From positions 1 through 29,086 of the IMG/VR virus record IMGVR_UViG_3300032303_001470: a stretch of DNA of 29,086 bases; one strand, 5' to 3'. The position numbers were made by a program, and so were the translations under genes. This stretch comes from a virus (Duplodnaviria; Caudoviricetes). Positions 849 through 27,927 of the stretch are shown one piece after another (the first letter of the stretch is position 1; each line of letters opens with the position of its first letter). The notes beneath the pieces were generated by a model that saw nothing but the letters and a program-made list of their open reading frames with translations, was not told the origin of the DNA and ran no database searches.

Positions 849-876
849 AAATCCTGGACACGATTTAAAACTGTCC
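849..876 (+). ncRNA. H-type pseudoknot motif, copy 1
   Basis: P1 AAATC/GATTT, loop CT, P2 GGACA/TGTCC, loop AAAAC. Confidence 0.75.
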
Positions 877-890
877 GAACATTTGTTCTA
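875..890. promoter_or_regulatory. LexA (SOS)-like box
   Basis: CCGAAC-ATTT-GTTCTA versus actinobacterial consensus TCGAAC-N4-GTTCGA. Confidence 0.5.
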
Positions 891-905
891 AAATCCCCCG
901 AGGCG

Positions 906-926
906 TTTTCCACAGGTTTATCCACA
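906..926 (+). promoter_or_regulatory. two tandem DnaA-like boxes
   Basis: TTTTCCACA (906-914) and perfect TTATCCACA (918-926), each followed by GG. Confidence 0.6.
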
Positions 927-935
927 GGGCGATTA

Positions 936-951
936 TGTGGTTAAGATCACA
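936..951. promoter_or_regulatory. CRP/GlxR-type box
   Basis: TGTGG-TTAAGA-TCACA (1 mismatch). Confidence 0.6.
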
Positions 952-980
952 CTCCAGATTGTCCAGATTAGGGCGTCTGA

Positions 981-1010
981 TTGGATTTTGTCAGTCCAGT
1001 ATGATAGGAT
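981..1010 (+). promoter_or_regulatory. promoter with PafBC-like -26 element
   Basis: TGTCAG(989-994)-N10-TAGGAT(1005-1010); SD GAAAGGA before ATG 1034. Confidence 0.7.
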
Positions 1011-1033
1011 AAAGATATAACGAAAGGAAACAA

Positions 1034-1219
1034 ATGGGAAAGTTTAAAAACACACTAATGGAAATACTTGCTCATGATGAGTGCTATGGAGCAGGTTGGC
1101 AATTTACAGGAAATGCGATAGACTATGATGTATGGGCGTGTGAGTGTAATCCTTACAATATCCCTGCTGATGAAATACAGGAATACCACCAATTATTCAA
1201 AACTAAGGAGAACGCATAA
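1034..1219 (+). CDS. small putative metal-binding protein, paralog of 486..635
   Basis: HDECYGAG...GN..DYDV..CEC. Confidence 0.8.
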   Translation: MGKFKNTLMEILAHDECYGAGWQFTGNAIDYDVWACECNPYNIPADEIQEYHQLFKTKENA

Positions 1220-1428
1220 TGGAATATACTTATTCACTTACTACTTCATATGACGGAAAGTTAATTCATACCCTGCGAGTTAGCGATATGCTAGAAGCAG
1301 TTAATGCTTGGACTAAATGCGTGGACTATGGAACTGCTAAGGAATACGCAACCTATAATTTGTCTGACCCAACAGGTAAAATGTATACTAAAACTTTCTT
1401 TACTAATGGAGAGGTCGTAATTAAATAA
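1219..1428 (+). CDS. hypothetical protein
   Basis: AAGGAG SD, TAATG coupling. Confidence 0.8.
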   Translation: MEYTYSLTTSYDGKLIHTLRVSDMLEAVNAWTKCVDYGTAKEYATYNLSDPTGKMYTKTFFTNGEVVIK

Positions 1429-1742
1429 TGGGAAGCATAACAGCAATAGGTTTAGCAGATACAACGCTAGACCTAGAAACGCAATTAAAGTATCACTTGC
1501 AAGGTAATCATTATCCACCAATACCAACAATAATGGTGCAACCTTGCATTGAGGCAATTGATGCTGCATATGATGAGGATTGGGATAGAAAGATTAACTT
1601 GCCTTGTGATGGTGTAGATAAAAATGGTGAGCCATTTCAAATTACTTGGAAAGGTAATGCTTGGACTACTGCCAGCATGTTAATAGATCATGCACACCTA
1701 CAATGGTTCATTGAGCCAGTAGATGAGGAAGAAAATGATTGA
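1428..1742 (+). CDS. hypothetical phage protein
   Basis: 104 aa, coupled; HL..NHYPP motif. Confidence 0.8.
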   Translation: MGSITAIGLADTTLDLETQLKYHLQGNHYPPIPTIMVQPCIEAIDAAYDEDWDRKINLPCDGVDKNGEPFQITWKGNAWTTASMLIDHAHLQWFIEPVDEEEND

Positions 1743-1974
1743 TCTAGAAAATGATGATACTATTGCTCTTATGGATTACTATAAAGTTGATATATTAACT
1801 GCGGGACAGTTAATGGTTGACGATTGTATTCTAGTTGCTGATGAGGTTGTGTCTATTGTAGATATAGTTTCACTACGTGATGGATACACTTTAGAAATTG
1901 TAAATGATTTTGGTGAAAGAGAAATAATTGAAGTTGGCGAATACGACCAATTTGATTTAATGATGTTGCAGTAA
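1735..1974 (+). CDS. acidic hypothetical protein
   Basis: ORF 1723..1974; ATG 1735 preferred because GAGGA precedes it. Confidence 0.7.
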   Translation: MIDLENDDTIALMDYYKVDILTAGQLMVDDCILVADEVVSIVDIVSLRDGYTLEIVNDFGEREIIEVGEYDQFDLMMLQ

Positions 1975-2022
1975 AAAGCGGGGGCTCGGGCAATTTGTCC
2001 GATTTGTACTAATTAAGGCGAC

Positions 2023-2051
2023 TTGATATTTTTCCCATATTCTGCTAGAAT
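2023..2051 (+). promoter_or_regulatory. SigA-type promoter, leaderless transcript
   Basis: TTGATA-17-TAGAAT with extended TG; ATG 6 nt downstream. Confidence 0.75.
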
Positions 2052-2057
2052 TTTTAT

Positions 2058-2786
2058 ATGACTACACCACAGTTAAAAAGATCGTTTGACAGAAAGGTTG
2101 CTAATCTTGTCACAAAAAATGGAAAGCAAGCCGCTATGGCAAATACTTTTGGATTACCTGCTGGTAAAGAATTCTCATGTCCTGGTGCCACTAGCGTCTG
2201 CGAAAGCGTCTGCTACGCAGGAAAACTTGAAAAGTTATTCAAAGGAGTAAAGGCTAACCTTTTACACAATTGGGAATTATTAAAAGACGCTGATGAACCT
2301 ACTATGGTTGATCTATTAGAGAACATGATTGCTGATTTTAAAAAAGATTGTGAAAAGAAAAATGCTCCCTTACTATTCCGTATTCATTGGGACGGTGATT
2401 TCTTTAGTGATACTTACACTAGAGCATGGCAATATATCATCCTTAATAATACAGATATAAAATTTTGGGTATACACTAGAGTACACTCTGCAGCGGTAAT
2501 GCTTAAGGGTATACCTAATCTATCTTTATACTATTCCACAGATAGTGAGAATAAGGAGATAGGTGTTAGTTTAAAGAAAGATCATGGCATACGCCTTGCA
2601 TACCTTGCAAAGAATTTTGCTATAGGTCAAGCAGATATGAAAGAGTTATTTAATAAACCTGGCGCTAAGTGTCCTGAAAACTTAAAGGCAATTCCGCTTA
2701 TCTCATCTAGTGGCTCCGCTTGTGTTTCATGCGGATTATGTGTATACTCTAAGAGCGATATAGTTTTTTCATCATCTAAAAAATAG
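2058..2786 (+). CDS. gp88-family phage protein, putative Fe-S/radical-SAM-like
   Basis: CPGAT..C...CYA, RIHWDGDF, WVYTR and C-terminal CP...C..C..C motifs. Confidence 0.75.
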   Translation: MTTPQLKRSFDRKVANLVTKNGKQAAMANTFGLPAGKEFSCPGATSVCESVCYAGKLEKLFKGVKANLLHNWELLKDADEPTMVDLLENMIADFKKDCEKKNAPLLFRIHWDGDFFSDTYTRAWQYIILNNTDIKFWVYTRVHSAAVMLKGIPNLSLYYSTDSENKEIGVSLKKDHGIRLAYLAKNFAIGQADMKELFNKPGAKCPENLKAIPLISSSGSACVSCGLCVYSKSDIVFSSSKK

Positions 2787-2796
2787 GGGGTAGTGT

Positions 2797-2862
2797 TTGG
2801 AAGTCTTAATAGTATTATCAGTTATATTCGCCTATCTATTGTTCGCTGGCATGGGGCACTAA
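2797..2862 (+). CDS. 21-aa hydrophobic peptide, not in ORF track
   Basis: TTG start after GGGGG; MEVLIVLSVIFAYLLFAGMGH. Confidence 0.45.
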   Translation: MEVLIVLSVIFAYLLFAGMGH

Positions 2863-2892
2863 ATGTCCGTTTTGTCCGTTTTTGTATTGTAA

Positions 2893-2933
2893 TGTGAGAT
2901 ACATCACTAGTATTACATCTCAAAATATGAGAT
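2893..2933. promoter_or_regulatory. CRP-type box plus second palindrome
   Basis: TGTGA-GATACA-TCACT (2893-2908); ATCTCA-N5-TGAGAT (2917-2933). Confidence 0.6.
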
Positions 2934-3012
2934 TATCAGAAATATAATTTGTATTTTTGAGCAAAAAATGTTAGACTTATACAGTAAGCCAAACCAACAG
3001 AAAGGGACACAA

Positions 3013-3177
3013 ATGTCCGTAGCAAACGCAACATACAAAGTAGGCGACACCTACACATCACAAAAATCAAAGGTAGTAGGAACTATTACCGAAATTGTGC
3101 CAACTAACAAGAACACAGTTAGAGTTAAGTTAGATGTTAATGGCGCAACTCGCTGGACAACTTGGACAGCAAAGTAA
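3013..3177 (+). CDS. small basic beta-rich (SH3/KOW-like) protein
   Basis: ATG 3013 follows SD AGAAAGGG; ATG 2968 lies inside the promoter -10 (TGTTAGACT). Confidence 0.8.
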   Translation: MSVANATYKVGDTYTSQKSKVVGTITEIVPTNKNTVRVKLDVNGATRWTTWTAK

Positions 3178-3196
3178 TCTTAGCCTAGTGGCTAAA

Positions 3197-3222
3197 GTCC
3201 TGAGCATGACGAGAAACTGCTC
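3197..3222 (+). ncRNA. H-type pseudoknot motif, copy 2
   Basis: P1 GTC/GAC, CT, P2 GAGCA/TGCTC, loop GAGAAAC; preceded by hairpin TTAGCC/GGCTAA (3180-3195). Confidence 0.7.
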
Positions 3223-3270
3223 AACTTAATACCCCCATCAAACCCATCAACAGATAAGGAAACCATCACA

Positions 3271-3693
3271 ATGGCAAGAAGCAAACCCATCAGCGTTAAA
3301 ATCGCTACTGCTAAGGTTATCACCGCCTTAGAAAATAGGTTAGCAGAACTAGAGGCTAACTATAAAACACAAGACGAGAACGAAGCAAAGTTCCAAACCG
3401 CAATAGAGGCTTGGAAAAAAGAACTATTTGCTTTTGCTATCGCTAATGTTTCTAAGGCTGAAAACCTACGCACCAACTATCGTCAATGGTCTAGCAACCT
3501 TAATGTTGATTTTGATTTAACAGTTAAGGAAGGCGAGTTCCCTGCTGAACCTCAAAGAGCGTTTGAGCAACTTCATCAGCACACTTATCGTGAGCAGAAA
3601 GATGAAATGGAAAATGCTATCCGTATCCTTAAAATGACAGATGAGGAAACAGTTAGCACTAGCACATATAACGCTATTGCTCGTTATCTTTAA
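3271..3693 (+). CDS. hypothetical phage protein (coiled-coil rich)
   Basis: 140 aa, TAAGGA SD. Confidence 0.85.
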   Translation: MARSKPISVKIATAKVITALENRLAELEANYKTQDENEAKFQTAIEAWKKELFAFAIANVSKAENLRTNYRQWSSNLNVDFDLTVKEGEFPAEPQRAFEQLHQHTYREQKDEMENAIRILKMTDEETVSTSTYNAIARYL

Positions 3694-3786
3694 TTAGATA
3701 ATTAGGTGGGGAAGGGTATTTGACTTCCCCCCTAAAAAATGTTAGACTAAGTAAGTAAGCAACCACCACAACAGAAAAGGAAAATC

Positions 3787-3957
3787 ATGACACTAGGCGG
3801 ATACACATATCAAATTGGTGATTTATTCACCACTAGTAAAACAGGCGTAACTGGTAGAATTGTAAAGTTCTCACCAATTAACTCTAAACTTACTAGAGTA
3901 TCTCTACAATTAGCAAATGGCGCACAACGCCTTGCTATGGTAAGCACAACTAAATAA
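3787..3957 (+). CDS. 56-aa paralog of 3013..3177, not in ORF track
   Basis: MTLGGYTYQIGDLFTTSKTGVTGRIVKFSPINSKLTRVSLQLANGAQRLAMVSTTK; same promoter/leader as paralog. Confidence 0.85.
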   Translation: MTLGGYTYQIGDLFTTSKTGVTGRIVKFSPINSKLTRVSLQLANGAQRLAMVSTTK

Positions 3958-4006
3958 TTTATCTCTGATAAGCACTTGGCTTAATTGCTAAGTTATTCCT
4001 GAGATA

Positions 4007-4035
4007 AGATTCCTGAGTAAGAATCTAAACTGCTC
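4007..4035 (+). ncRNA. H-type pseudoknot motif, copy 3
   Basis: P1 AGATTC/GAATCT, CT, P2 GAGTA/TGCTC (one G-U), loop AAAC; preceded by long hairpin 3959-4007. Confidence 0.75.
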
Positions 4036-4072
4036 ACTTTTTAATTGCCCTGCAAAAATCCCCCGAGGGGCG

Positions 4073-4104
4073 TGTGATCTAAATCATATCTCATTATGTG
4101 AGAC
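4073..4104. promoter_or_regulatory. CRP-type box plus second palindrome
   Basis: TGTGA-TCTAAA-TCATA (4073-4088); ATCTCA-N5-TGAGAC (4088-4104). Confidence 0.55.
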
Positions 4105-4174
4105 TAATTAAGAACGGCATTTGCATTTCCACAATCTTGATGATATTATTGTATTAACAGAAAAGGAACCCCTA

Positions 4175-4642
4175 ATGAGCGAAATACTAACACAGGAGCA
4201 GTTAACTGTTTCTTATAACCCTAACCTACTAGTTACGTACAAGTATGTTCCAGAAACCTATGCAGCGCCAGAGTCACCTACATTCATGACTGATAAGGTT
4301 ACTGACATTGAGTGGCAATTGCATAAGTCACGAGAGTATGCAGCAAGGGCTGCAGAGAGACGCAGTGACATTGCATGGCTTGAAGATCAGATTGCTGAAT
4401 GGTATGATCCTAACTATTCTAAAGAAGATGTTTTAAAAGCGCTAGCAGAGCACTTTGATATCAATCCTACTAAACAGATTGAAGTTCAAGGTACTGTTTC
4501 ATTCAGTGGAACAATTAATGTTCCAGTGTCTGAATTGGATGACTTTGATCTAAGTAATGTAACAATTGATGTTGATTTGAATTCATATGAGTATGACGCA
4601 GATCTTAATGTAGACGAAGTGTCTCTAGAAGACCACTACTAA
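4175..4642 (+). CDS. acidic hypothetical phage protein
   Basis: ATG 4175 after AAAGGA; TTG 4121 is the promoter -35 (TTGCAT). Confidence 0.8.
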   Translation: MSEILTQEQLTVSYNPNLLVTYKYVPETYAAPESPTFMTDKVTDIEWQLHKSREYAARAAERRSDIAWLEDQIAEWYDPNYSKEDVLKALAEHFDINPTKQIEVQGTVSFSGTINVPVSELDDFDLSNVTIDVDLNSYEYDADLNVDEVSLEDHY

Positions 4643-4665
4643 ATTTGATAGGGGGCTATCAAAAC

Positions 4666-4692
4666 GGACCTGAGCACGTCCTAAAAAGGCTC
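4666..4692 (+). ncRNA. H-type pseudoknot motif, copy 4
   Basis: P1 GGAC/GTCC, CT, P2 GAGC/GCTC, loop TAAAAA; preceded by hairpin TTTGATAG/CTATCAAA (4644-4663). Confidence 0.7.
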
Positions 4693-4774
4693 CACCTCTT
4701 TGCAACCAACTCGGGCTATCCGAAATGTCCGATTTGTACCATTTAAGAAGATTAAGCCTTTTTCCCAATCCTAG

Positions 4775-4803
4775 TTGACATTGTCTGCCATGACTGCTAA
4801 ACT
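4775..4803 (+). promoter_or_regulatory. SigA promoter with additional -26-like element
   Basis: TTGACA-17-TAAACT, extended TG, and TGTCTG(4782-4787)-N10-TAAACT. Confidence 0.8.
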
Positions 4804-4829
4804 TAATTAAAACAACCGAAAGGATAAAA

Positions 4830-5846
4830 ATGGCTCATGATTTAGAAACTCAAAATGGTGTTGCATCTTTTGCATCATTTAGAGAGCCTGCATGGCATAA
4901 TCTTGGTACCGTATTTGATACTGAGAAAAATACAAGTGAAATGCTTGTTGCTGCTAATCTTAATAATTGGAATGTTAGACTAGATGAATTAACAATTCCA
5001 TCTAACATGACATCTGACAAAAACTACCAATATGTAGTTCGCACAAATCCTACTGACAAATCTCAAACTGATGTTTTGGGAATTGTTGGTGAGCGCTATG
5101 TTCCATTACAAAATGAAGAGTTATTTGCTTTTGGCGATAACATTCTTGATGGTGGTGGGCGTTGGGAAACTGCTGGCTCAATTAGTGGTGGGCGTGTAGT
5201 ATTTGGCTCTCTTGCATTAGAGCGTGAAACTGTGTTAGACCCTAATGGTGTTGCAGATGTTGTAAAGACTTATTTACTCATCAACACATCACATGATGGT
5301 TCTATTGCAATTCAAGCAAGCATAACACCTGTTCGTGTTGTGTGCGCTAACACTCTTAATGTTGCACTTAATCGTACACGCAAGAAAGATGGCGTCAAGC
5401 AATCTTTCAAAATCCGTCATACCCAAACTGCTCAAGGTAAAGTTGCCGTTGCTCGCCAAACACTAGGCATGGCTAACTCTTACATGGATCAATTTGACAA
5501 GATGGCACATGCAATGATTGCTAAAGAAATCTCAGCACAAGATTTTAATAACATTATTCTTGCTGCTTACCCTAAGCCAGAAACTGATTCTAAGGGTTCT
5601 GTAAAGAAATGGGAAAACAAGGTAGATATTATTAACGATATTTACACTGGTGAGTTTAACGGAATGATTGCTGGTAATGCGTGGGGAGCATTTAACGCTC
5701 TTACTGAACGCCTTGATTGGTACCGTACTGCTCGCACTGGTAATGGTGAAAGCATGTTTGCTGCTGCTTCTGGATTTGACCCTGCAACTAACGCAGAGAA
5801 AAATCGTTTGCTAACTGTTGTGCAAAATACTTTGCAACTAGTTTAG
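4830..5846 (+). CDS. DUF932 family phage/plasmid-like protein
   Basis: MAH..E, R..AWH.LG, LG.VG.RY..LQN, ETAG...GG, SHDGS, TPVRVVC.N, HT motifs. Confidence 0.85.
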   Translation: MAHDLETQNGVASFASFREPAWHNLGTVFDTEKNTSEMLVAANLNNWNVRLDELTIPSNMTSDKNYQYVVRTNPTDKSQTDVLGIVGERYVPLQNEELFAFGDNILDGGGRWETAGSISGGRVVFGSLALERETVLDPNGVADVVKTYLLINTSHDGSIAIQASITPVRVVCANTLNVALNRTRKKDGVKQSFKIRHTQTAQGKVAVARQTLGMANSYMDQFDKMAHAMIAKEISAQDFNNIILAAYPKPETDSKGSVKKWENKVDIINDIYTGEFNGMIAGNAWGAFNALTERLDWYRTARTGNGESMFAAASGFDPATNAEKNRLLTVVQNTLQLV

Positions 5847-5850
5847 TAAA

Positions 5851-5879
5851 AAAATCCTGAGCATGATTTTAAACTGCTC
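5851..5879 (+). ncRNA. H-type pseudoknot motif, copy 5
   Basis: P1 AAAATC/GATTTT, CT, P2 GAGCA/TGCTC, loop AAAC; ends 4 nt before tRNA-Asp. Confidence 0.8.
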
Positions 5880-5883
5880 TACT

Positions 5884-5957
5884 GGTCCCATAGATCAATT
5901 GGTTAGATCGTTACCCTGTCACGGTAAAGGCTACGGGTTCAAGTCCCGTTGGGATCG
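5884..5957 (+). tRNA. tRNA-Asp(GTC)
   Basis: Acceptor GGTCCCA/TGGGATC, anticodon arm TTACC-CTGTCAC-GGTAA, T-loop GTTCAAG; CCA not encoded. Confidence 0.95.
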
Positions 5958-6094
5958 CAAGGGCCCGAGTATAACATTTTTGTTATAATTGTATTACGTT
6001 GACATAACATTTTTCCCATTTTCTCATTACGGATAGTTGACTTTTTTCCCATTTTGTAGGATAATTAATTCATAACCACACATTGGGAGGATTA

Positions 6095-6271
6095 ATGTTA
6101 GGATATACATATAAAGATATACAGGCCTTTGGTAATAGTTTAACTTGGGCTATTGATACCGCCAAATCTCAAGGGGATGAACAAAACTATAAACAATTAC
6201 TAATAGTATGGGACTTCTTTGAAGGTTTGTTAGCAGAAGGTTACATAGATGAGAACACATACTATGGATAA
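6095..6271 (+). CDS. hypothetical protein
   Basis: ATG 6095 after GGAGG; promoter TTGACT...GATAAT upstream. Confidence 0.75.
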   Translation: MLGYTYKDIQAFGNSLTWAIDTAKSQGDEQNYKQLLIVWDFFEGLLAEGYIDENTYYG

Positions 6272-6461
6272 TTTTATTAAAAACTATATTGAATATATGA
6301 AGATTCATTTAATTAGTCTTGAACAAGATAGATTAAACACAGACTATAGATTCTCTGCTAATGAATGCTATGAACTAAATGGGCAGATAAAAGCAACCGA
6401 ACACCTGTTGTCAGTGGCTAACGATATACTGAATAACGATATTCAAGGAAAGGGGTATTAG
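6249..6461 (+). CDS. hypothetical protein
   Basis: Overlapping ORF in operon; start could be ATG 6264. Confidence 0.7.
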   Translation: MRTHTMDNFIKNYIEYMKIHLISLEQDRLNTDYRFSANECYELNGQIKATEHLLSVANDILNNDIQGKGY

Positions 6462-8377: not shown

Positions 8378-8633
8378 GGTTTGTGAGATTTTAGGTAGTC
8401 TATACTCTAATTATAGGGATGATGAGGAGTTAGATGATTTTATGGACTTTAATGATTTAGGGCTACCCCTTGCTTATCTGTCTGCTGAAAATCTTTGTCA
8501 GGTATCAGATGACGGTGCTAGATACATAATGGAAACCTGGAACTTGTTTTTACAAAGTCTTAATTTAGAGGATACTGGTAATTGGGATAGCCTAGATGAT
8601 TTGTTAGGTTCTGCCGATGACAAACTAAATTAG
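8361..8633 (+). CDS. acidic hypothetical protein
   Basis: ATG 8361 preferred; F..FNDLGLPLAY motif. Confidence 0.75.
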   Translation: MTDFTKVCEILGSLYSNYRDDEELDDFMDFNDLGLPLAYLSAENLCQVSDDGARYIMETWNLFLQSLNLEDTGNWDSLDDLLGSADDKLN

Positions 8634-8659
8634 CACAAACGGCTCGGGTAACACATTGC

Positions 8660-8786
8660 CAAACCTTTATTTACGAAAAACATATTACGATCCCAAACCT
8701 TTTTTTCCAGATTCATGGACAAACCTTCCAAACCTTATTTTCTAAAAAAACATTACGATCCGCTAGAATATTTTCCAGATTCATGG
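8660..8786. repeat. repeat block A (CAAACCT x4, TTACGA x3, TTTTCCAGATTCATGG x2)
   Basis: CAAACCT at 8660, 8694, 8720, 8729; 16-mer at 8703 and 8771. Confidence 0.85.
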
Positions 8787-8813
8787 TTACTATAGGGATA
8801 TTGGGTATCTTTT

Positions 8814-9344
8814 TTATACCCGCCCAAATGGATAATAGTTTAAATTAAGAACTGCCCTAAACCTTTGGTCTGTACAACTGGTTCCAGTATGCCAGGCCTG
8901 TGAATCAAAAATAACAATTCTATTCTCTATAGATTCTATTTTGATTCCATCTATAAATTTTGTATACCCATTATTATTATTTAAATAAAACACGGCAGTT
9001 AACAAACCAGTATTAGTTGTTAAATCTTTATGATATCCATATTCAAGCAGTTCTTCAGTTCTCATTGTCATATTTGCTTTTATTTTTACTATAGCCAATG
9101 GATTAATTTTTTTTATTAATGGATTTAAAATATTAAAATGGTCTGACTTTATTATATGTGTATTATAGAATGTATGTACAAATTGAAAACTATCTTTAGA
9201 TTCAGCCTCTTTTTCACTTTCACTTACTTTTGACTTATTGTAACTCCATGGGATTGCAGGACTAAGTATAAAATCCTGTATTTGTTTAAAATCTTCTTTG
9301 TCTAAAAAATTATCTATAACCCAATACTCTGGTTTGTTTGCCAT
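8814..9344 (-). CDS. 2OG-Fe(II) oxygenase-like protein
   Basis: HxD (YHKD), distal H (WHTG), R.V.N; IDNFL N-terminus; leaderless promoter 9351-9359. Confidence 0.8.
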   Translation of the reverse strand: MANKPEYWVIDNFLDKEDFKQIQDFILSPAIPWSYNKSKVSESEKEAESKDSFQFVHTFYNTHIIKSDHFNILNPLIKKINPLAIVKIKANMTMRTEELLEYGYHKDLTTNTGLLTAVFYLNNNNGYTKFIDGIKIESIENRIVIFDSQAWHTGTSCTDQRFRAVLNLNYYPFGRV

Positions 9345-9405
9345 CTAACAAGTATATCATTATCTTAACAAACCTTCATATTAAATATAATGATATAATT
9401 TGGCT

Positions 9406-9588
9406 ATGAGCCCAAGACCTTTTTATAAACAACGATACACCCCCTACTTCCAGAGTGCTCATTATCTTAATGAGTCTAACTCATCTAAAATGGAAAAAAA
9501 GATAGAAGCCTTTATAGTTACTGTGTTTTATATACTTACTTTAATACCTCGGAAAATTTTTAGATTCCGTGTTCGTCGTCACAAATAG
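9406..9588 (+). CDS. small basic hypothetical protein with hydrophobic segment
   Basis: TGATATAAT 6 nt before ATG 9406. Confidence 0.6.
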   Translation: MSPRPFYKQRYTPYFQSAHYLNESNSSKMEKKIEAFIVTVFYILTLIPRKIFRFRVRRHK

Positions 9589-9598
9589 TACTATCAGA

Positions 9599-9920
9599 CA
9601 TTACGAAGCGGGATTTATAATCCCATTTCCCACAATATAAAACATACCAAACCTTTCTATATTTTTTCTTGGTTTTTTAAATATTATCCAAACCTTTCTA
9701 GATTTTTTCTCTGGTTTTCTAATACTTTTATAACTTTTTTGTTATGTTTTTATAGGGGTTTTATAGTTGACAAACCATGGTTTTGGGGATATAATGCATG
9801 CCCAATATGAAGGTTTGGAAGGTTTGAAGGTTTGGGGATGGGAGGTTTGGCCGCCAGAACATTACGACGCCATCTATAAAAACGCTCAATCACCCACTAT
9901 CCTCCACTTTGCTCCATTCT
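9599..9920. repeat. repeat block B, origin/terminus-like
   Basis: ~31-bp direct repeat at 9647 and 9688, T-rich tract, palindrome AAACCATGGTTT (9772-9783), AGGTTTG x4 (9811-9849), CATTACGA at 9599 and 9860. Confidence 0.85.
9767..9795 (+). promoter_or_regulatory. perfect consensus sigma70/SigA promoter with no sizeable ORF downstream
   Basis: TTGACA-17-TATAAT. Confidence 0.8.
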
Positions 9921-9938
9921 AACCCAATCTCAAAAATA

Positions 9939-10514
9939 TCAGTAAGAAATAAGTTGTGGATTTTTGTCTCTAAAGTCGTTAGCATCTTTAAATATTGGGT
10001 CTTTTAAACTTACTCTAAGGTGTGTATAGTCTTTTACATTATATGGATCAAAAAACCTTATAAACAACATTTTAACATATTCTCCATCTTTAAACTCCTT
10101 ATGGGTTCTCCAATGAATCTCTTGATTTTGATTAAAGATTAAAGCAGAGTTGTCTTCTAACCTATAAGTCTGCCTATTTAATCCAAGATCCCAAACCGTA
10201 TTAGATGATAATTGCATGTTAAAAAGTAACTCATTTTGATCTCCATCAAAGTGTGGAGGTATATCAGGCTTACCATATAAAAGGTTATACTCTACACACA
10301 AAATGTTACTTATAACAAGATTGCTATGTCCTAAATCATTTACAATGTTTTTAAATTTATGCAATATGCTTGGATTAAACAGTAGTTTTAAATCAGGAAT
10401 AGTCCTTAATCTGCCAAATTCACTTTGTATTTTTGAATCACATTTTACTATAATTTCTTCTATATCTTTTATTTCTTCTTCAGAGAGTATGTTCTTTATG
10501 ATGGATATAGCCAT
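9939..10514 (-). CDS. 2OG-Fe(II) oxygenase-like protein
   Basis: PHFD (HxD) and IHWR; leaderless promoter 10521-10529. Confidence 0.75.
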   Translation of the reverse strand: MAISIIKNILSEEEIKDIEEIIVKCDSKIQSEFGRLRTIPDLKLLFNPSILHKFKNIVNDLGHSNLVISNILCVEYNLLYGKPDIPPHFDGDQNELLFNMQLSSNTVWDLGLNRQTYRLEDNSALIFNQNQEIHWRTHKEFKDGEYVKMLFIRFFDPYNVKDYTHLRVSLKDPIFKDANDFRDKNPQLISY

Positions 10515-11208: not shown

Positions 11209-11643
11209 ATGGAAGAATTAATAAATCTAATTAAAGTTCTGCTTGCAGATAATATCACCCTTAAACTTAAGGCTCATGGATATCATTGGAACGTAGAGGG
11301 AATTGAGTTCTCACAATATCATGATCTTTTTGGTGAAATATATGCAGACTATGAGCAAGCAACAGATACATATGCTGAATGGCTTAGAAAATTAGATACA
11401 TATGCACCATATAAATTATCTAGATTTATACAGTTAAATGAAATTGGAGAACCAGAAGTTACATCTGATCCAGTAGTAATGTCAAAAGATCTTTTAATGG
11501 CAAACGATATGGTTACAACAAAACTTATAAATGCATTTGATATGGCAACGGCTCAAAGACAACAAGGACTTGCAAACTTTTTTGCAGATCGTATGAGTAT
11601 GCATCAAAGATGGCACTGGCAGTTATCTGCTTCAGTAAAATAA
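11209..11643 (+). CDS. dps: Dps family ferritin-like protein
   Basis: H..HWNV.G..F...H..F.E.Y...D..AE ferroxidase signature. Confidence 0.9.
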   Translation: MEELINLIKVLLADNITLKLKAHGYHWNVEGIEFSQYHDLFGEIYADYEQATDTYAEWLRKLDTYAPYKLSRFIQLNEIGEPEVTSDPVVMSKDLLMANDMVTTKLINAFDMATAQRQQGLANFFADRMSMHQRWHWQLSASVK

Positions 11644-11668
11644 ATTTCTATAAAATAATATAAGTATA

Positions 11669-11822
11669 CACACCTTCAAACCTTTATATCTGGCTATGGG
11701 GATATCAGTCTATAAGGTTTGAAAGGTTTGTTATTACACTAGGGGTTATGGGGATACTTTTGACTTCCCCGCAAAAATAGGATACTAACCGATAGTGCCC
11801 TCTTAGGGCATTGGAAGGTTTG
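11669..11822. repeat. repeat block C: inverted CAAACCT/AGGTTTG arms
   Basis: CACACCTTCAAACCTTTATA...TATAAGGTTTGAAAGGTTTG (11669-11730); another AGGTTTG at 11816. Confidence 0.8.
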
Positions 11823-11827
11823 CTAGT

Positions 11828-12272
11828 TCTATTTTGCGCCGAACCTAATAGATGATATACTTTATAAATGGCCACCATTGTTGATATTGACGATACTCTT
11901 CTTAGAAACGGAACTCAACCTATTCGCAGAGTTATTGATTATGTCAACGCTTTGCCAGGTGCTTTGATTATTGTAACGGGAAGAAATGTATCACAGCGTA
12001 AAGAAACTGTGGCAGCATTAAGAGCAGCAGGGGTTAAGTATTCTAGACTTATTATGAATCCAGGCTCTTCTGCAGATACCGCCAAATATAAGTATGAGGT
12101 TGGAGTTAAACTAAAATCTCAAGTTAGTTTAGCAATTGATAATAATGCAACAATGAGAGCAGCATATTCTAGAGCAGGAATACCAACAAAGGATCCTGCT
12201 ACTATTACGGACATGAAAAAATTTTGGTCAGCATTTTTTAGGCCATAAGATTTACTCTATTTTGCGCCGAAC
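11828..12272 (+). repeat. 17-bp direct repeat flanking HAD gene cassette
   Basis: TCTATTTTGCGCCGAAC at 11828-11844 and 12256-12272. Confidence 0.9.
11868..12248 (+). CDS. HAD-superfamily phosphatase (PNKP phosphatase-domain-like)
   Basis: DIDDTL motif I, VTGR motif II, K, IDN motif IV. Confidence 0.75.
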   Translation: MATIVDIDDTLLRNGTQPIRRVIDYVNALPGALIIVTGRNVSQRKETVAALRAAGVKYSRLIMNPGSSADTAKYKYEVGVKLKSQVSLAIDNNATMRAAYSRAGIPTKDPATITDMKKFWSAFFRP

Positions 12273-21391: not shown

Positions 21392-21392
21392 G

Positions 21393-21917: not shown

Positions 21918-22045
21918 TTTTCTATTGTTCCTTTACATCTAATACAGGCTAAATAGTCTTTACCAGTAAACGGACAAGATCCAGCATCAATAAATGAGTG
22001 ACCTTTTATTTTACATTTGACATATACAATTAAATCTTTTATCAT
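21914..22045 (-). CDS. 43-aa Cys/His peptide, not in ORF track
   Basis: C...GH......CPFTG..Y..C.RC; ATGA overlaps. Confidence 0.7.
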   Translation of the reverse strand: MIKDLIVYVKCKIKGHSFIDAGSCPFTGKDYLACIRCKGTIEK

Positions 22046-22272: not shown

Positions 22273-22475
22273 TACTTTCTTCCCCACTGAATCTTATTCC
22301 ATCCACGCTCGTGTGCGTAATAAATAAATACTTTAACTACCGTTTCCCAAAAGGCAATAGCACCTGAAAGTGTTGCATCTCCAGTAATCACATATGCAAC
22401 AACAAATGAAGATAGGGTTCCCCATATACGATAACTTAGTGCTTTAGTAAATGATCGTGCCTTGGTTACTGTCAT
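22272..22475 (-). CDS. DUF2061-like membrane protein
   Basis: RS..KA.SYR..GT ... YY.HER.W..I.WG. Confidence 0.8.
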   Translation of the reverse strand: MTVTKARSFTKALSYRIWGTLSSFVVAYVITGDATLSGAIAFWETVVKVFIYYAHERGWNKIQWGRK

Positions 22476-22579
22476 AGCATAGGCTCACTATCGTCTGTTC
22501 CGCCAAAATATTTTTCTATAACATAGACCATAATTCCAGCAAATACAAACGATATTATAAGAGCGGTGAATATATCCAT
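22472..22579 (-). CDS. 35-aa membrane peptide, not in ORF track
   Basis: MDIFTALIISFVFAGIMVYVIEKYFGGTDDSEPML. Confidence 0.6.
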   Translation of the reverse strand: MDIFTALIISFVFAGIMVYVIEKYFGGTDDSEPML

Positions 22580-22582
22580 AAC

Positions 22583-23344
22583 CTATATTCCTAATTCTTT
22601 ACGTTTTTGTGTTGCAGAAATAGCATGAATGTCTGCACCTAAATCTACCTGTTCAATCTTATACCCCACATCACGACCATAAACAATGTTGGTAATGTTA
22701 GGTAATTTTAATACTAATGCGCCATCCATAAATTCATCTTTGGCAATATATTCTTTTACCTGATCAAACTTGAGTGGATCTTTTTCACTTGTATTATATG
22801 TATTTCGGATTCCAAGTAATACTTGTTTGGTTCGTTTACCCGCTTCTTTATATAAAGCGTGATGACCTTCATGCCACGGCTGATAACGACCAAGCATAAG
22901 TGTTGTTGGTGCAGACCAATCATGTAAATTATGTTTTTGAATTATATGAAATGCTTTTTCTTCAGCATTTAATTCATGATTAGAAAAATACACATTAGCA
23001 GTTTCAGGACGCTCAAACATTTTGTTAGTGTCTTCAAAACGGCCTTCAACAATTGTATCCATAAATACTAAAATGTCTGCCTTGCCAAATGCTTCTCTTG
23101 TAGCATCTGTAGGACATACAAAATCTACAATTACTGGGGCAACTCCTTGATTAGCAATAAGCCTTGCCATTGCACCCATACGTCTTGCTTGCTCTATGCG
23201 ATCTTCAGGAGCAAACCCAAGGTCAGAGTTAACTGTAGAGCGTACCTCATCTGCATTAAGATGAATAGCATTAATACGTTCCTTCAATGCTTTTGCTAAT
23301 TCTGTTTTACCAGAACCAGGTAGCCCAATTATTTGTATAATCAT
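22583..23344 (-). CDS. cysC: adenylylsulfate kinase fused to HxGH nucleotidyltransferase-like domain
   Basis: GLPGSGKT P-loop, AD.VR, DLGF..EDR.EQ.RR; C-terminal GRYQPWHEGH. Confidence 0.8.
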   Translation of the reverse strand: MIIQIIGLPGSGKTELAKALKERINAIHLNADEVRSTVNSDLGFAPEDRIEQARRMGAMARLIANQGVAPVIVDFVCPTDATREAFGKADILVFMDTIVEGRFEDTNKMFERPETANVYFSNHELNAEEKAFHIIQKHNLHDWSAPTTLMLGRYQPWHEGHHALYKEAGKRTKQVLLGIRNTYNTSEKDPLKFDQVKEYIAKDEFMDGALVLKLPNITNIVYGRDVGYKIEQVDLGADIHAISATQKRKELGI

Positions 23345-23345
23345 T

Positions 23346-23630
23346 CTATTTCTCCATTGTTAAAGATTGCCAAGTATCTGACCAGTCTTCTTTGGTTTTA
23401 TGATTGTTGAATTCTTTTGAAATTTCCCCATCTTCTAAGTATACACCACCCCAAACACCCCACTCTTTGCCAGATATTCCTACGGCAAAACAAGTTTTTG
23501 CTACTGGGCATAATTTACACATGGAGTCAACAATTTTGCGGTTACTTGGATCATCCTCATATTTATCAAAATATATATTAGTATCAAGCCCTAAACATCT
23601 AGCATTATCTTTCCATAAATGCTGTTTCAT
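23346..23630 (-). CDS. whiB: WhiB family transcription factor
   Basis: W...A.C, C..CPV...C, GVWGG. Confidence 0.9.
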   Translation of the reverse strand: MKQHLWKDNARCLGLDTNIYFDKYEDDPSNRKIVDSMCKLCPVAKTCFAVGISGKEWGVWGGVYLEDGEISKEFNNHKTKEDWSDTWQSLTMEK

Positions 23631-23632
23631 TT

Positions 23633-23842
23633 TTATTGTCGATACTTATCTGGAATATTCCAACCATTACGACTAGGTGAATAAACTTTATGAAGATACC
23701 ACTTGTCTTTTATCCTAATACCTGCTGAAGATGTTTTTGCAGTTTTTGATTCTTTTAAATCAATAACATCCCAACCTTGCCAAATTAAATTTTTATTTTT
23801 AAAAACAATTTTTTCCATTGTGTTTAAACTTTTAATCAACAT
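23633..23842 (-). CDS. hypothetical protein
   Basis: 69 aa, GGGGG SD. Confidence 0.75.
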   Translation of the reverse strand: MLIKSLNTMEKIVFKNKNLIWQGWDVIDLKESKTAKTSSAGIRIKDKWYLHKVYSPSRNGWNIPDKYRQ

Positions 23843-23851
23843 AAATACCCC

Positions 23852-24202
23852 CTAGTATTTAAATATACCAACCTCTATATTTTTTAATTGTGCTTCTGAA
23901 ACTAATTTAGATACACTTTCATCTGGTTTACTTAAAAATGCAAAATAGTTAACTTGATTTAAATTTTCTTTCATCCAAATTGGAGCAACTTTATAAAATT
24001 TTATTTTTTTACCACGTGCTTTCATTCCTTTTTCTGATATATTAGAAAATTCTGAAACAAAAGAATTAACTTTTGCTGGGCCAGCAGAATAGATTATAAA
24101 ATCTTTATCATCTTTGTGCATATTTGACATGGCAACTCCCATAGAGCGAATAAACACACTATAGTCATTAAAATCAGTTGTACCCTGCACTGCCACGATC
24201 AT
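23852..24202 (-). CDS. YspA/SLOG-like hypothetical protein
   Basis: IVAV.G...F.DY N-terminus and Rossmann-like pattern. Confidence 0.5.
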   Translation of the reverse strand: MIVAVQGTTDFNDYSVFIRSMGVAMSNMHKDDKDFIIYSAGPAKVNSFVSEFSNISEKGMKARGKKIKFYKVAPIWMKENLNQVNYFAFLSKPDESVSKLVSEAQLKNIEVGIFKY

Positions 24203-24590
24203 TTTTTTCCCCATCTTTTAAACTATCTAATATAAAAAGCATTTTATCTAAATCTATTTTTGGTAAATTATATATATCGACTGGCCTTGTGGTATTTTTT
24301 TGTATTTCACCATTAACAGCCTCTGCGACATAAAACTTATTGTCAGACACCCAATATGCTTTATTACCTAAAACAATAACTTTAATCATACTACTTTCTC
24401 TACGTTTTGTCAACTGTGTAGAGTTATCTTTATTTGTTAAAGAAATTGAAAAAAAATGTTTTAATAAGTTATGAACATCGCTTTGACAAAAAAAAGTTTT
24501 TGATATTCTTTTTTTTTCTTTTTTCTTTCTTATATTAATTATAGAGCAAATGACTAAGATTGTCAACAATGCTATTATTAATTCTTGCAT
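24174..24590 (-). CDS. membrane-anchored hypothetical protein
   Basis: N-terminal TM followed by Lys run; AYWV.DN.FY.A. Confidence 0.75.
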   Translation of the reverse strand: MQELIIALLTILVICSIINIRKKKEKKRISKTFFCQSDVHNLLKHFFSISLTNKDNSTQLTKRRESSMIKVIVLGNKAYWVSDNKFYVAEAVNGEIQKNTTRPVDIYNLPKIDLDKMLFILDSLKDGEKNDRGSAGYN

Positions 24591-24602
24591 GTTTAAAATA
24601 TT

Positions 24603-24776
24603 CTATTTTTTATCTGCAACGGCTTTGTTATTTGTTTTTAAATTTGCAACATTTTCAAGTATGCTAATCCTATTTAACTTTATTTGTAATTGTAATAAAT
24701 TAAATTCAAGATCTGTGCTTTTTTGTTTATAAAAAATAACTAATTGTTTTATTTCTTCTAAAGTTAAATCTTCCAT
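24603..24776 (-). CDS. 57-aa coiled-coil protein, not in ORF track
   Basis: MEDLTLEEIKQLVIFYKQKSTDLEFNLLQLQIKLN...; AAAGGA SD. Confidence 0.75.
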   Translation of the reverse strand: MEDLTLEEIKQLVIFYKQKSTDLEFNLLQLQIKLNRISILENVANLKTNNKAVADKK

Positions 24777-24778
24777 TT

Positions 24779-25150
24779 TTATCCTTTTCTAAAATTAAAT
24801 GGGCTATTTGCCCAAATCTTTTCTACTTGCTTTTTTTCTCTTTCTACAATTGCACGGCTCCATGAAAATCCTGCATCCCCACCCCAGGCATCCCACATGA
24901 TTCTACCGTTAGACGGAAACTCTGGACCATCATAAAAACCTTTGCCTTTTTTATCTACTTCATGACGGGAAAAGAAAGAAAACATTCTTTTAACAGTACT
25001 AAGAGACATTGCTGATCCATTTACAATATCAGTTGCACGACCCCAACCTACAGGAGTTCCTGCGCCAGTTGCCTTGCCATCTTCTTTCCACTTTAATGCA
25101 CGACGGGCAGCAGCCTTCATACCAGAAGTAGGGGTATATGTATCAGCCAT
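24779..25150 (-). CDS. conserved phage protein (possible head-associated domain)
   Basis: GT.VG..RA, TVKRM.SFFSRH, WD.WGGDAG..W. Confidence 0.75.
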   Translation of the reverse strand: MADTYTPTSGMKAAARRALKWKEDGKATGAGTPVGWGRATDIVNGSAMSLSTVKRMFSFFSRHEVDKKGKGFYDGPEFPSNGRIMWDAWGGDAGFSWSRAIVEREKKQVEKIWANSPFNFRKG

Positions 25151-25253
25151 TCTTCTTATCCCGTTTTTGTTGTTTAGCAACACGTTTTTCTTTAAGAGTC
25201 ATCTTAGGCTCTTTTTTTGTATTAGCATTAGCCTTTTGTTCTTTATTTGCCAT
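25143..25253 (-). CDS. 36-aa highly basic peptide, not in ORF track
   Basis: MANKEQKANANTKKEPKMTLKEKRVAKQQKRDKKNG; AAGGGG SD. Confidence 0.7.
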   Translation of the reverse strand: MANKEQKANANTKKEPKMTLKEKRVAKQQKRDKKNG

Positions 25254-25257
25254 TTAT

Positions 25258-25401
25258 TTACCCCTTTTTTATTTTTGGATATGGACCAAGATCTGCTTTA
25301 ATTGTACCGTCTTTTCTTAGTCTAACAATTCTGCCATTTTTAATTTGTAAAGAATTAAAAGCGTTGTTTTTAAAATAAGAACCAGAAGATCTATTAGCCA
25401 T
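25258..25401 (-). CDS. 47-aa basic peptide, not in ORF track
   Basis: MANRSSGSYFKNNAFNSLQIKNGRIVRLRKDGTIKADLGPYPKIKKG; TAATG coupling. Confidence 0.7.
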   Translation of the reverse strand: MANRSSGSYFKNNAFNSLQIKNGRIVRLRKDGTIKADLGPYPKIKKG

Positions 25402-26198
25402 TATTTTTCAAACCTTAGAGGATTAAAGGATCCATCCCAAATACTTTTTGTTGTAGATTGTGACTCTGATTTATACGTACCACCACGACGCTTATATTCT
25501 TGAACTACCCAAGAGTTAGCAACTGCAGATGGATAAACATCAAATTTATCTTTTGCTGCTTGAACAACTCTTGCATAAAGTTTAGGGTTTGAAGGAGTTG
25601 ATCCACCCCTACGTGGTTTAATCATTTCACCATAGTTAGGCTTTTTTGCTTTTTCCATTTCATCTTCCATTTCTTGTGATTTTCCAATTGATGAATCATA
25701 CATTGCTATTGCAACTTCAGTATTCATAGCCTCATTATTTTGAAGGTCTGGAATAAACAATGGTTCAATCTTTGTTACCATTGAAGATTTTACACCAATT
25801 AAATTTTCAGTTTCATCCCATCCATAACCTTCTTCAAACTCAAGAATACGAACTAAAACTACTGGTTCTTCTGTTGAGGCTTTTAAAGAATAATCAGAAT
25901 ACTCTATTCCAAACATACCATCTGTCATTACATATTGAATAATTCCAACATAAACTTCATCTTCACCAGATGCAATAACAAAATCACCTTCTTTTGGCAT
26001 TGATTTTTCTATAATAGAAATAAATTTTTGTGCAGTACTAGCATAAATAGCACGAGCCTGTGCTTGTGCCTGTGCTTTTGTTGGATGGCATCCATGAACT
26101 GTTCCATCTGCGCTTACTGTTGGAAATCCATTGCATCCATAAGAGCCTTTGGCTCCTGCATGATATCCTCCTGCTGGCTTTCCATTTCCTGCTGGCAT
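25401..26198 (-). CDS. multi-domain hypothetical phage protein
   Basis: GGAGG SD; N-terminal GCH.T...A..Q module, acidic middle, C-terminal YPSA.AN.W...EYKRRGG module. Confidence 0.8.
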   Translation of the reverse strand: MPAGNGKPAGGYHAGAKGSYGCNGFPTVSADGTVHGCHPTKAQAQAQARAIYASTAQKFISIIEKSMPKEGDFVIASGEDEVYVGIIQYVMTDGMFGIEYSDYSLKASTEEPVVLVRILEFEEGYGWDETENLIGVKSSMVTKIEPLFIPDLQNNEAMNTEVAIAMYDSSIGKSQEMEDEMEKAKKPNYGEMIKPRRGGSTPSNPKLYARVVQAAKDKFDVYPSAVANSWVVQEYKRRGGTYKSESQSTTKSIWDGSFNPLRFEK

Positions 26199-26236
26199 AA
26201 TAAACCTCCTAGGCTATATAACGATTATATCAGAGT

Positions 26237-26566
26237 TTAAAGTTTTAAAAGTCTAATAACTTCAAAAAGGTTCCAACGATCTTCTTTAGACAATTCATTA
26301 ACAAGATCTTGATTTATTGCCTTTTCTGTTAACGTAATTACTGGGTCTTTAGCAAAAAAATCGAGATTTATAAAGCCTTTTTCCCACAATCTCATAATAT
26401 TTGTATTTATATCATTTAAATGTTGATGATAAAGATCAGGCATTAATTTTTGTATTTTTGGAGTAAAAGCATAAAGTAATTCACCAGTTTCTTCATCTAC
26501 AGCAACGGCTTCAACACCTCCATCAAGAATCAGTTTTTCAATTAATTCATCATCATATCTACTCAT
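26237..26566 (-). CDS. hypothetical protein
   Basis: 109 aa, overlaps thioredoxin stop. Confidence 0.8.
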   Translation of the reverse strand: MSRYDDELIEKLILDGGVEAVAVDEETGELLYAFTPKIQKLMPDLYHQHLNDINTNIMRLWEKGFINLDFFAKDPVITLTEKAINQDLVNELSKEDRWNLFEVIRLLKL

Positions 26567-26810
26567 TTTTAATAAATTTTTCTAATTCATCTTTTGTTTT
26601 TGCACCACTTATACGATTTAATTCTTTACTATTTTCAAATAAAATAAAAGTAGGAACTGATTTAATTTCAAACTGTTTAATTAATTCTTTTTCATAGTCA
26701 ACATCTATCATTTGAAAATTAAAACCTTCTCTTTTCATATCCTCAACAATTGGTCTAACTTTTTTACAAGGATTACACCACTCTGCTGTAAAATAAAATA
26801 TGTTTTTCAT
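26559..26810 (-). CDS. thioredoxin
   Basis: F.A.WCNPC, IDVD, I.SVPTF. Confidence 0.9.
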   Translation of the reverse strand: MKNIFYFTAEWCNPCKKVRPIVEDMKREGFNFQMIDVDYEKELIKQFEIKSVPTFILFENSKELNRISGAKTKDELEKFIKNE

Positions 26811-27214
26811 TTTCCAGACTTTGCTCTAGCCTTTTTTAATACTTCAAAATCTTTAATTTTTGTTTCACCAAGATATCCCCAAGCATATCCATCATTAATC
26901 ATTTTATCGTTTAATGATTCTGTATCACCATTTACGTATATCCAACCAAGAATTCGACCATACTTTTCTGATGAATTCATTTTTTCAGTTTTAATTACAA
27001 CAGACTTAACATCTTTAAGATGTTTTTTTAAATAATCTTTAGACTCAAGACCAAGAACTTTTTCTGCTTTATCTGTTGTTCTTGATTCTGGAGTATCAAT
27101 ACCAGCCAAACGAACACGAGATGAAAATAAAATATCAAATCCTAAATCAATAATAACATCAATGGTATCTCCATCAACAACATTCTTTACTTCTTTTACA
27201 AAATACTCATACAT
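26807..27214 (-). CDS. thermonuclease (SNase-like) family protein
   Basis: VVDGDTID, RVRLAGIDTPE, KYGRILG. Confidence 0.9.
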   Translation of the reverse strand: MYEYFVKEVKNVVDGDTIDVIIDLGFDILFSSRVRLAGIDTPESRTTDKAEKVLGLESKDYLKKHLKDVKSVVIKTEKMNSSEKYGRILGWIYVNGDTESLNDKMINDGYAWGYLGETKIKDFEVLKKARAKSGK

Positions 27215-27525
27215 TATATTGCTCCAATTGTTTTGTTTTCTATTAGTTTTTCACGTTCATCAATAACTTCTAACATGAAAGACATCATTTTTTTATATGA
27301 TTCTGGGTTATTCATTATTTTTTCATAATGATGATTGCAAAACATTAATTCTCCAGAAGCACCTTTTACTTTAATTAATGCTTGTGCTAAGCATTTATCA
27401 CATCTATCTTTTGCATCTAGTTTCCATTGTTTTGGCTTTGTACTAAGATCATCTTTAATAACACTGCTCATAGTTCTATTATACATCCAATTACTTCTTT
27501 CTATTTTCGGTTGAGTAAAATCCAT
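27214..27525 (-). CDS. zinc-binding hypothetical protein
   Basis: DRCDKC...L.FC.HH; true start probably a downstream ATG. Confidence 0.7.
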   Translation of the reverse strand: MDFTQPKIERSNWMYNRTMSSVIKDDLSTKPKQWKLDAKDRCDKCLAQALIKVKGASGELMFCNHHYEKIMNNPESYKKMMSFMLEVIDEREKLIENKTIGAI

Positions 27526-27676
27526 TTCCGTTAAAAATTGTACCTAAATTTGAAAATACACGAACCATTTTGTTATTGCAAATTTCACAGTTATATCCTG
27601 GATCTATGTCTTTTATAGATCTTTCTTTAATAAATCTTTTTGCACAAGACATACAATCATATTCATACAATGGCAT
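27491..27676 (-). CDS. FmdB family zinc-ribbon protein
   Basis: MP.YEY.C..C ... C..C...M.R ... F.G.GFY.T. Confidence 0.85.
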   Translation of the reverse strand: MPLYEYDCMSCAKRFIKERSIKDIDPGYNCEICNNKMVRVFSNLGTIFNGNGFYSTENRKK

Positions 27677-27877
27677 TTATTTAATTTTCTTTCCAAATTT
27701 AGCCCAAACTCTTTCATGAAAAAAATATCCCAATGCTTCCCAACCAATATAAATTAAAGCGCCAAGACTTGCATACTCCCACTCTCCAGTGAAAAGATAT
27801 ATAACTCCAGCAACGCCAACAAGATGAAATGTTTCCCAACTTAATGTTTTAAGCAAAGTTCTTTTAGTTGATTCCAA
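27677..27877 (-). CDS. DUF2061-like membrane protein
   Basis: TTG start after AGGAGG; ES.KR.LLKT.SW ... YF.HER.W. Confidence 0.75.
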   Translation of the reverse strand: MESTKRTLLKTLSWETFHLVGVAGVIYLFTGEWEYASLGALIYIGWEALGYFFHERVWAKFGKKIK

Positions 27878-27894
27878 AGTTTCCTCCTAATAAA

Positions 27895-27927
27895 GGACAG
27901 TTTATTTAAAGACATGTCCAGGTCTCT
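27895..27927 (-). ncRNA. H-type pseudoknot motif, copy 6
   Basis: - strand: P1 AGAGAC/GTCTTT, CT, P2 GGACA/TGTCC, loop AAATAAAC; begins 6 nt after TATAAT (27934-27939). Confidence 0.75.

Follow-up and report, generated by a model that had tools for sequence, protein, structure and literature searches.

What is the job of a pseudoknot of about 30 nucleotides (nt) that recurs six times in one stretch of phage DNA? The question is raised by positions 1 to 29,086 of the virus record IMGVR_UViG_3300032303_001470 (the window, meaning the whole 29,086-nt stretch that was analysed), a phage fragment of 33.6% GC with WhiB, Hsp20, DUF932 and GP88 genes and three tRNAs. We infer that its source is a freshwater actinobacterial phage; DNA of its relatives is present in lake metatranscriptome assemblies. 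The knot represents a family that is both new and very widespread, built on a scaffold like that of coremin, an exonuclease-resistant RNA (xrRNA), and probably does a known job. As far as sequence can tell, it may be a 3′-end stabiliser that would halt 3′→5′ exonucleases within a few bases of where the upstream gene ends, a proposal that we regard as evenly poised between right and wrong.

The family consensus is a predicted H-type pseudoknot of ~27 nt, consisting of a first stem (P1) of ~4 base pairs (bp) closed by C-G, a C-U (sometimes C-C) loop, a 5-bp second stem (P2) with an A-U at the junction, one extruded base, and a loop 3 ending in AAAC. With a descriptor that prescribed P1 and the loops but nothing else, pairing extended to all four free P2 positions in 114 of 116 unique copies, and an independent scan of IMG/VR with the P1 scaffold alone found 63 of 72 eight-base loops fully paired at P2, in 33 distinct P2 combinations (shuffles: mean 20.6, maximum 31). 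Reversing the test by fixing P2 gave a P1 of at least 3 bp in 153/153 viral and 116/125 GTDB matches. A P2-free descriptor, applied to the window and 80 loci fetched by their DUF932 protein, found 327 copies, 325 of them on the + strand; on Markov controls it found 0, 0 and 2. In an alignment of one orthologous slot, which took in 25 of 42 distinct sequences, 99.1% of cells were paired, with compensatory changes at 4 of 9 pairs. Most descriptors fix the closing pair; in the protein-selected alignment, C-G stands in 25/25. This covariation of both stems in larger sets of loci bears out the original prediction, made on the window alone, that selection acts on an RNA fold. The fold, which that prediction could not assign to a known family, also lies outside those of Rfam: Rfam 15 gave no match over any window copy at E ≤ 10, and Rfam scans of 60 loci placed no family over the motif. 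A selected RNA fold outside any Rfam family is therefore supported by the sequences. An operator acting at the DNA level is ruled out because G·U wobbles and the A-rich loop are confined to the coding strand, and a hammerhead ribozyme is ruled out because its CUGA core would be invariant, whereas the corresponding bases of the knot vary together as the two sides of P2 (33 pair types).

Placement relative to genes is the second line of evidence. Gene calls are mechanical open reading frames (ORFs), which makes orientation counts noisy. In 358 copies with an upstream stop codon on the same strand, the closing C lies 0–6 nt past the stop in none, at 7 nt in 2, at 8 nt in 56 and at 9 nt in 43. A same-strand tRNA begins 3–13 nt past the end of the knot in 56 of 471 copies (about 40 of the 56 being one orthologous slot), while the knot follows a tRNA in 3. 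Behind the DUF932 stop codon, the knot is present in 76 of 80 loci that were picked by protein only; the other 4, all of one lineage, carry a plain GC hairpin of −20.8 kcal/mol in the same place, with no U-tract.

The sharp onset at 8 nt past the stop resembles the spacer of frameshift pseudoknots and could reflect a boundary signal coupled to translation, one that sits right against the terminating ribosome and serves, for instance, to prevent it from re-initiating or from sliding into the next gene. Chromosomal copies keep a fixed spacing to a conserved Cys-rich peptide, and coremin, which stalls ribosomes, offers a precedent (PMC10520033, PMC10321173). Such a signal is nonetheless quite unlikely, as in many copies the nearest stop is more than 20 nt away and the tRNA and ribozyme geometry is left unexplained. 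Readthrough or −1 frameshifting is excluded as a rule: the frame past the stop stays open for a median of 7 codons (at least 40 codons in 11/184 copies), and 7/184 have a slippery heptamer. The peptide in question, of 20–26 amino acids (MK(R/K)..(P)R.AHC.EGC...S), is the product of a conserved gene that ends, at a fixed spacing, with a UGA stop within the knot (L222, L233, L243, L247, L267, L271, L277, L283 and L337; e.g. L233:2520-2582, minus strand). These loci come from Aminicenantes, Thermodesulfobacteriota, Spirochaetota, KSB1 and others, and 9/9 of the peptides have no NCBIfam family.

The knot also precedes self-cleaving ribozymes. It stands directly 5′ of type III hammerheads at L083, L087, L248, L253 (twice) and L342 (those at L087, L248 and L342 recognised by core pattern only) and of twister-P1 ribozymes at L273 and L292. 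At these eight places the cut falls ~6–13 nt past the knot, as read by hand, so self-cleavage would leave the knot on the upstream piece. At 3 loci, the knot directly precedes the DUF2800 RNA. Among 33 independently sampled type III hammerheads, 26 have a hairpin of −10 kcal/mol or lower just 5′ of the cut (1/33 in each control window), and none of 115 hammerhead cores has a knot downstream. A strong hairpin thus stands before nearly all of the phage type III hammerheads (L349-L462), and often holds GTGTC-loop-GACAC. In L292 (257-317 and 843-903), the slot before two other twister ribozymes is taken by an H-type pseudoknot of another kind, with P1 CCCAG/CTGGG and P2 GAGCT/AGCTC.

We favour a 3′-end job because the placement before tRNAs and ribozymes and the interchangeability with a stabiliser hairpin fit one role. 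Hairpins stop 3′→5′ exonucleases, and RNase P cuts at the 5′ ends of tRNAs. In the mechanism we envisage, the conserved C/U and AAAC loops would form major- and minor-groove triples, and the 8-nt floor would keep the knot core outside the terminating ribosome. A downstream cut by RNase P, a ribozyme or a host endonuclease, or else Rho termination, would make a 3′ end, which PNPase or RNase R/II would trim back to the knot, thereby splitting long early transcripts into separately stable pieces with no terminator needed. In the window, an RNase P cut at the 5′ end of tRNA-Asp would leave copy 5 as the 3′ end of its mRNA. Among the functions offered by the original prediction, a nuclease roadblock or processing-associated element is the best fit; stop-codon anchoring, the slot just 5′ of tRNA and ribozyme cuts, the wide spread over phyla and the resemblance to the scaffold of coremin were no part of that prediction. 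Four metatranscriptome runs cover window positions 2900-6100 as assembled contigs of relatives, which show neither ends nor strand, and a depth drop after copy 2 was for this reason not used.

Several observations weigh against a 3′-end stabiliser. Downstream of most copies no cut site could be identified, and in the independent ribozyme samples the knot was found at 1/33 type III hammerheads and 0/24 twisters. At L031, L037 and L038 it lies in the 5′ leader behind a divergent gene, and in 5/471 copies, including copy 6 of the window, a transcription start is predicted at the knot itself. Several chromosomal copies at the peptide gene are followed by an ordinary terminator, so that a 3′ cap looks redundant there. 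Either stem alone has a weak nearest-neighbour energy (−5 to −8 kcal/mol), which makes blocking strength dependent on the predicted tertiary contacts. The scaffold resembles that of coremin, for which the tested block is 5′→3′, and the RNA ends and enzyme action that we invoke are predicted from sequence and putative cut sites. At L031:10620-10760, L037 and L038, and at L040:5788, L053:5791 and L077:5778, a larger or 9-nt-loop pseudoknot stands directly before the standard one.

A 3′ end could also be made at the knot itself, if it were a pseudoknotted intrinsic terminator or attenuator with P2 as the terminator hairpin. TTTT occurs within 12 nt downstream in 111/471 copies, and promoter-like sites follow copies 3 and 4 of the window. 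The U-tract of an intrinsic terminator is, however, missing from 360/471 copies, and the tRNAs, ribozymes and ribosome-binding sites a few bases after the knot must be read through; we rate termination as improbable. Much the same standing is held by a binding site, decoy or small-ligand sensor, for which the invariance of the unpaired C, A and AAAC bases and the frequent neighbourhood of antirestriction and early genes (ArdA, ArdC, DUF932) would speak. Its flanking genes share no common pathway, there is no expression platform, copies are single and dispersed, a plain hairpin can replace the knot in the DUF932 slot, and the knot occurs in many phyla and archaea with no recurring partner gene in the flanks scanned, all of which makes this function very doubtful. 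The two concrete candidates that the original prediction had put forward here both lack support: the preQ1-I riboswitch (RF00522) has no match over any window copy at E ≤ 10, with unrelated flanking genes, and a ToxI-like antitoxin array is at odds with dispersed, non-tandem copies whose flanking-gene annotations name no toxin gene. STAXI (RF01728) is rejected, having no Rfam match and consisting of tandem units in which a UUCG hairpin takes the place of AAAC (PMC2864571).

The main rival to a 3′-end stabiliser places the protection on the other side, with the knot as a bacterial xrRNA that blocks RNase J (5′→3′) and frees stable downstream sub-transcripts, like coremin. We consider this unlikely. 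It draws on a shared C-G closing pair, first-loop C, penultimate-loop A and AAAC-U spacer, and on the 10-nt register from the 3′ G of the stem to that spacer, which 254/320 copies keep as coremin does (PMC10520033). Scanning IMG/VR with the coremin scaffold alone returned 129 matches, with loops of 4 (4, all CGAA), 5 (1), 6 (39), 7 (7), 8 (72) and 9 nt (6); the 72 eight-base loops are the knot family, and YGNNAD fits 27 of the 39 six-base loops. Flaviviral xrRNAs halt RNase J1 in vitro (PMC5760640), and some knot copies lie at transcript starts. Against this, the loop rule of coremin, YG(N)nAD, calls for a G where the 72 loops have U (64), C (7) or G (1), and the second hairpin of coremin is depleted after the knot (66/469 versus 112/469 in a control window). 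With two defining marks of coremin lacking, a second hairpin and a G in the second position of the loop, we do not file the knot as coremin, though it may work like coremin outside that definition. Frameshift pseudoknots of similar size failed to stop Xrn1 (PMC10321173), and ribozyme and RNase P cuts would part the knot from the downstream RNA. There is nothing downstream to protect at L230 and L244, where convergent rpsI (12 nt) and FtsK (96 nt) genes follow the knot (convergent genes were used only if confirmed by Pfam, and 8 of 13 convergent ORFs have no Pfam match). RNase J itself was not seen in 29 of 77 knot-carrying genomes (the 77 covered out of 107 GTDB loci judged real), one complete genome among the 29; most are incomplete metagenome-assembled genomes (MAGs), possibly with mis-binned phage contigs. 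As the sample has no background set, the count indicates the lack of a requirement, not an enrichment.

A wider proposal would set the knot in a coremin-like superfamily (with 4-, 6- and 8-nt loops) that spans plant viruses and phages, as its prokaryotic branch with Watson-Crick pairing. The knot would then block exonucleases without the help of a protein, possibly from either side, which would make it the first natural xrRNA of bacteria, and phages would pair it with RNase P sites and self-cleaving ribozymes to cut long transcripts into separately protected pieces. We hold this to be possible but doubtful. Six-base motifs of the coremin consensus YGNNAD occur among L469-L598 (e.g. L478, L489, L514 and L521), several 6-nt-loop forms are on contigs of 13–50 kb and probably belong to DNA phages, and L514 and L515 show the 6- and 8-nt-loop forms on one contig.

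By estimates from partial scans, one subtype has matches in ~6300 stretches of IMG/VR and ~550 of GTDB. The copy numbers in five near-complete virus records are 5, 5, 5, 1 and 3 (reversed control: none). BLAST against cultured phages returned mostly chance matches inside genes; 2 of 45 records were examined further, and both are real, namely the cyanophages S-EIVl (3 copies) and NMeng1 (1). GTDB matches include archaea and come from Saccharibacteria, Bacillota, cyanobacteria, Bacteroidota, Chloroflexota, Methanobrevibacter and others, with MAG labels that may include mis-binned phage contigs. The named genes flanking them include ArdA, ArdC, DUF7249, DUF3768 and phage head genes, and many GTDB copies are therefore in mobile DNA. 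The phage cis-RNA system of the original prediction thus survives as to its fold, but belongs to a family much wider than the phage of the window. In Saccharibacteria, chromosomal copies with conserved flanks (L221, L268, L288, L310 and L334) apparently lie within an ORF of 14 codons that comes behind a divergent gene for peptidase S11. The searched literature (PMC5737381, PMC2864571, PMC6765202, PMC12191101 and the Minerva preprint) yielded no description of the motif, which subscription papers and the supplements of Weinberg 2017 and Fremin 2023 could still list; it was not found in the 3 of 6 supplementary files of PMC10690425 that were searched, nor is it described in the Minerva passages on pseudoknots and phage.

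Within the window itself (Table 1), re-reading the sequence confirmed the coordinates, strands and pairing that had been claimed for six copies, and all six are intergenic and in coding-strand orientation. A relaxed descriptor finds exactly these six and nothing else; of 200 dinucleotide shuffles of the window, 175 gave 0 matches, 24 gave 1 and 1 gave 2. The AAAC consensus applies to every copy except the degenerate copy 4, which has AAAAA. The claimed tolerance of G-U in P2 is seen in copy 3, whereas the junction of copy 4 is an A·G mismatch; copy 6 has a G-U in P1.

Table 1. Knot copies and neighbouring features in the window (stop distance: how far, in nt, the closing C of P1 is from the stop codon upstream).
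Feature	Positions	Strand	Stop distance	Description
Copy 1	849-876	+	8	P1 AAATC/GATTT, P2 GGACA/TGTCC; stop is that of ORF 635-844
Copy 2	3197-3222	+	21	P1 GTC/GAC, P2 GAGCA/TGCTC; flanked by ORF 2968-3177 and ORF 3271-3693
Copy 3	4007-4035	+	54	6-bp P1, P2 GAGTA/TGCTC with U·G; downstream of ORF 3787-3957; short U-run next
Promoter-like site	4120-4149			after copy 3 and its U-run
Copy 4	4666-4692	+	26	degenerate, A·G at P2 junction; preceding ORF ends at 4642
Promoter-like site	4775-4803			downstream of copy 4
DUF932 gene	4830-5846	+		copy 5 at 3′ end
Copy 5	5851-5879	+	9	stop is that of DUF932; 3′ end 4 nt before tRNA-Asp
tRNA-Asp(GTC)	5884-5958	+		directly after copy 5
Copy 6	27895-27927	-	26	6-bp P1, longer loop 3, P2 GGACA/TGTCC; after Hsp20 gene, before ribosome-binding site of DUF2061 gene
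Promoter-like TTGCTA-17-TATAAT	27934-27962	-		consensus match only; predicted start at P1 of copy 6
Hsp20 gene	27949-28377	-		upstream of copy 6
TGTCCGATT and CCCGAG/CTCGGG motifs	1996, 4726; 895, 4060; 1985, 4710, 5969, 8643			recurring motifs

Other features of the window deserve a record. Right after copy 1 (877-926) there is a GAAC-N4-GTTC palindrome at 877, which we take to be LexA-box-like, and a DnaA-box-like site, TTATCCACA, at 918. The motifs TGTCCGATT and CCCGAG/CTCGGG recur upstream of the early promoters. Positions 8633-8814, 9344-9939 and 11643-11868 are long and non-coding, contain many CAAACCTT/AAGGTTTG repeats, and may be part of an origin or of a region at the genome end.

If the knot is indeed a 3′-end stabiliser, its 27 nt would make it the smallest structured protector of bacterial mRNA ends known to us, very common and uncatalogued. 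It would bear on the role of self-cleaving ribozymes near phage genes, termed unresolved in PMC6765202; were the superfamily proposal true, these ribozymes would gain a purpose. The knot also offers a clean Watson-Crick model of the coremin fold, which the 2023 papers describe as unsolved (PMC10520033, PMC10321173). It occurs in cultured cyanophages and could serve as a compact stabiliser part.

How, then, does the knot compare with known systems? Like the 3′ stabiliser hairpins and repetitive extragenic palindromic (REP)-type elements of bacterial mRNA, it follows stop codons and stands immediately before predicted processing sites, and in one orthologous slot it is directly interchangeable with a hairpin; unlike them, it is a conserved pseudoknot with invariant loop bases, where they are hairpins free in sequence. 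In MALAT1 and NEAT1, RNase P cuts in front of a tRNA-like element and leaves a triple helix at the 3′ end. The logic proposed for the knot is the same, while the knot itself is unrelated in sequence, much smaller and prokaryotic, and would keep a 3–13-nt tail. With the preQ1-I aptamer and ToxI repeats it shares size and H-type topology, but neither a common regulated pathway nor a tandem array. STAXI elements resemble the knot in that they are small pseudoknots found close to the antirestriction and DNA-handling genes that mobile elements carry (PMC2864571). The luteovirus −1 frameshift pseudoknots (BWYV) are similarly compact H-type folds with a 2-nt loop 1 and an A-rich minor-groove loop (PMC10321173), whereas the knot lies outside coding sequence, with no slippery site or overlapping frame. 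Closest in scaffold are coremin (xrRNA-C) and xrRNA-WCC, which share with it a 4-bp hairpin closed by C-G, a location after stop codons, and a loop that starts with C and ends in A-D (PMC10520033, PMC10321173). The knot departs from coremin in its loop of 8 nt, where the second position is U or C, in its canonical 5-bp P2 and in its lack of a second hairpin. From xrRNA-WCC, with its 4-nt loop, G as loop 1 and 3-bp second stem (S2) with a junction G-C (PMC10321173), it is set apart by an 8-nt loop, CU as loop 1, a junction A-U and a 5-bp P2. The hosts differ as well: the knot is found in DNA phages and bacteria, coremin and xrRNA-WCC in eukaryotic RNA viruses.

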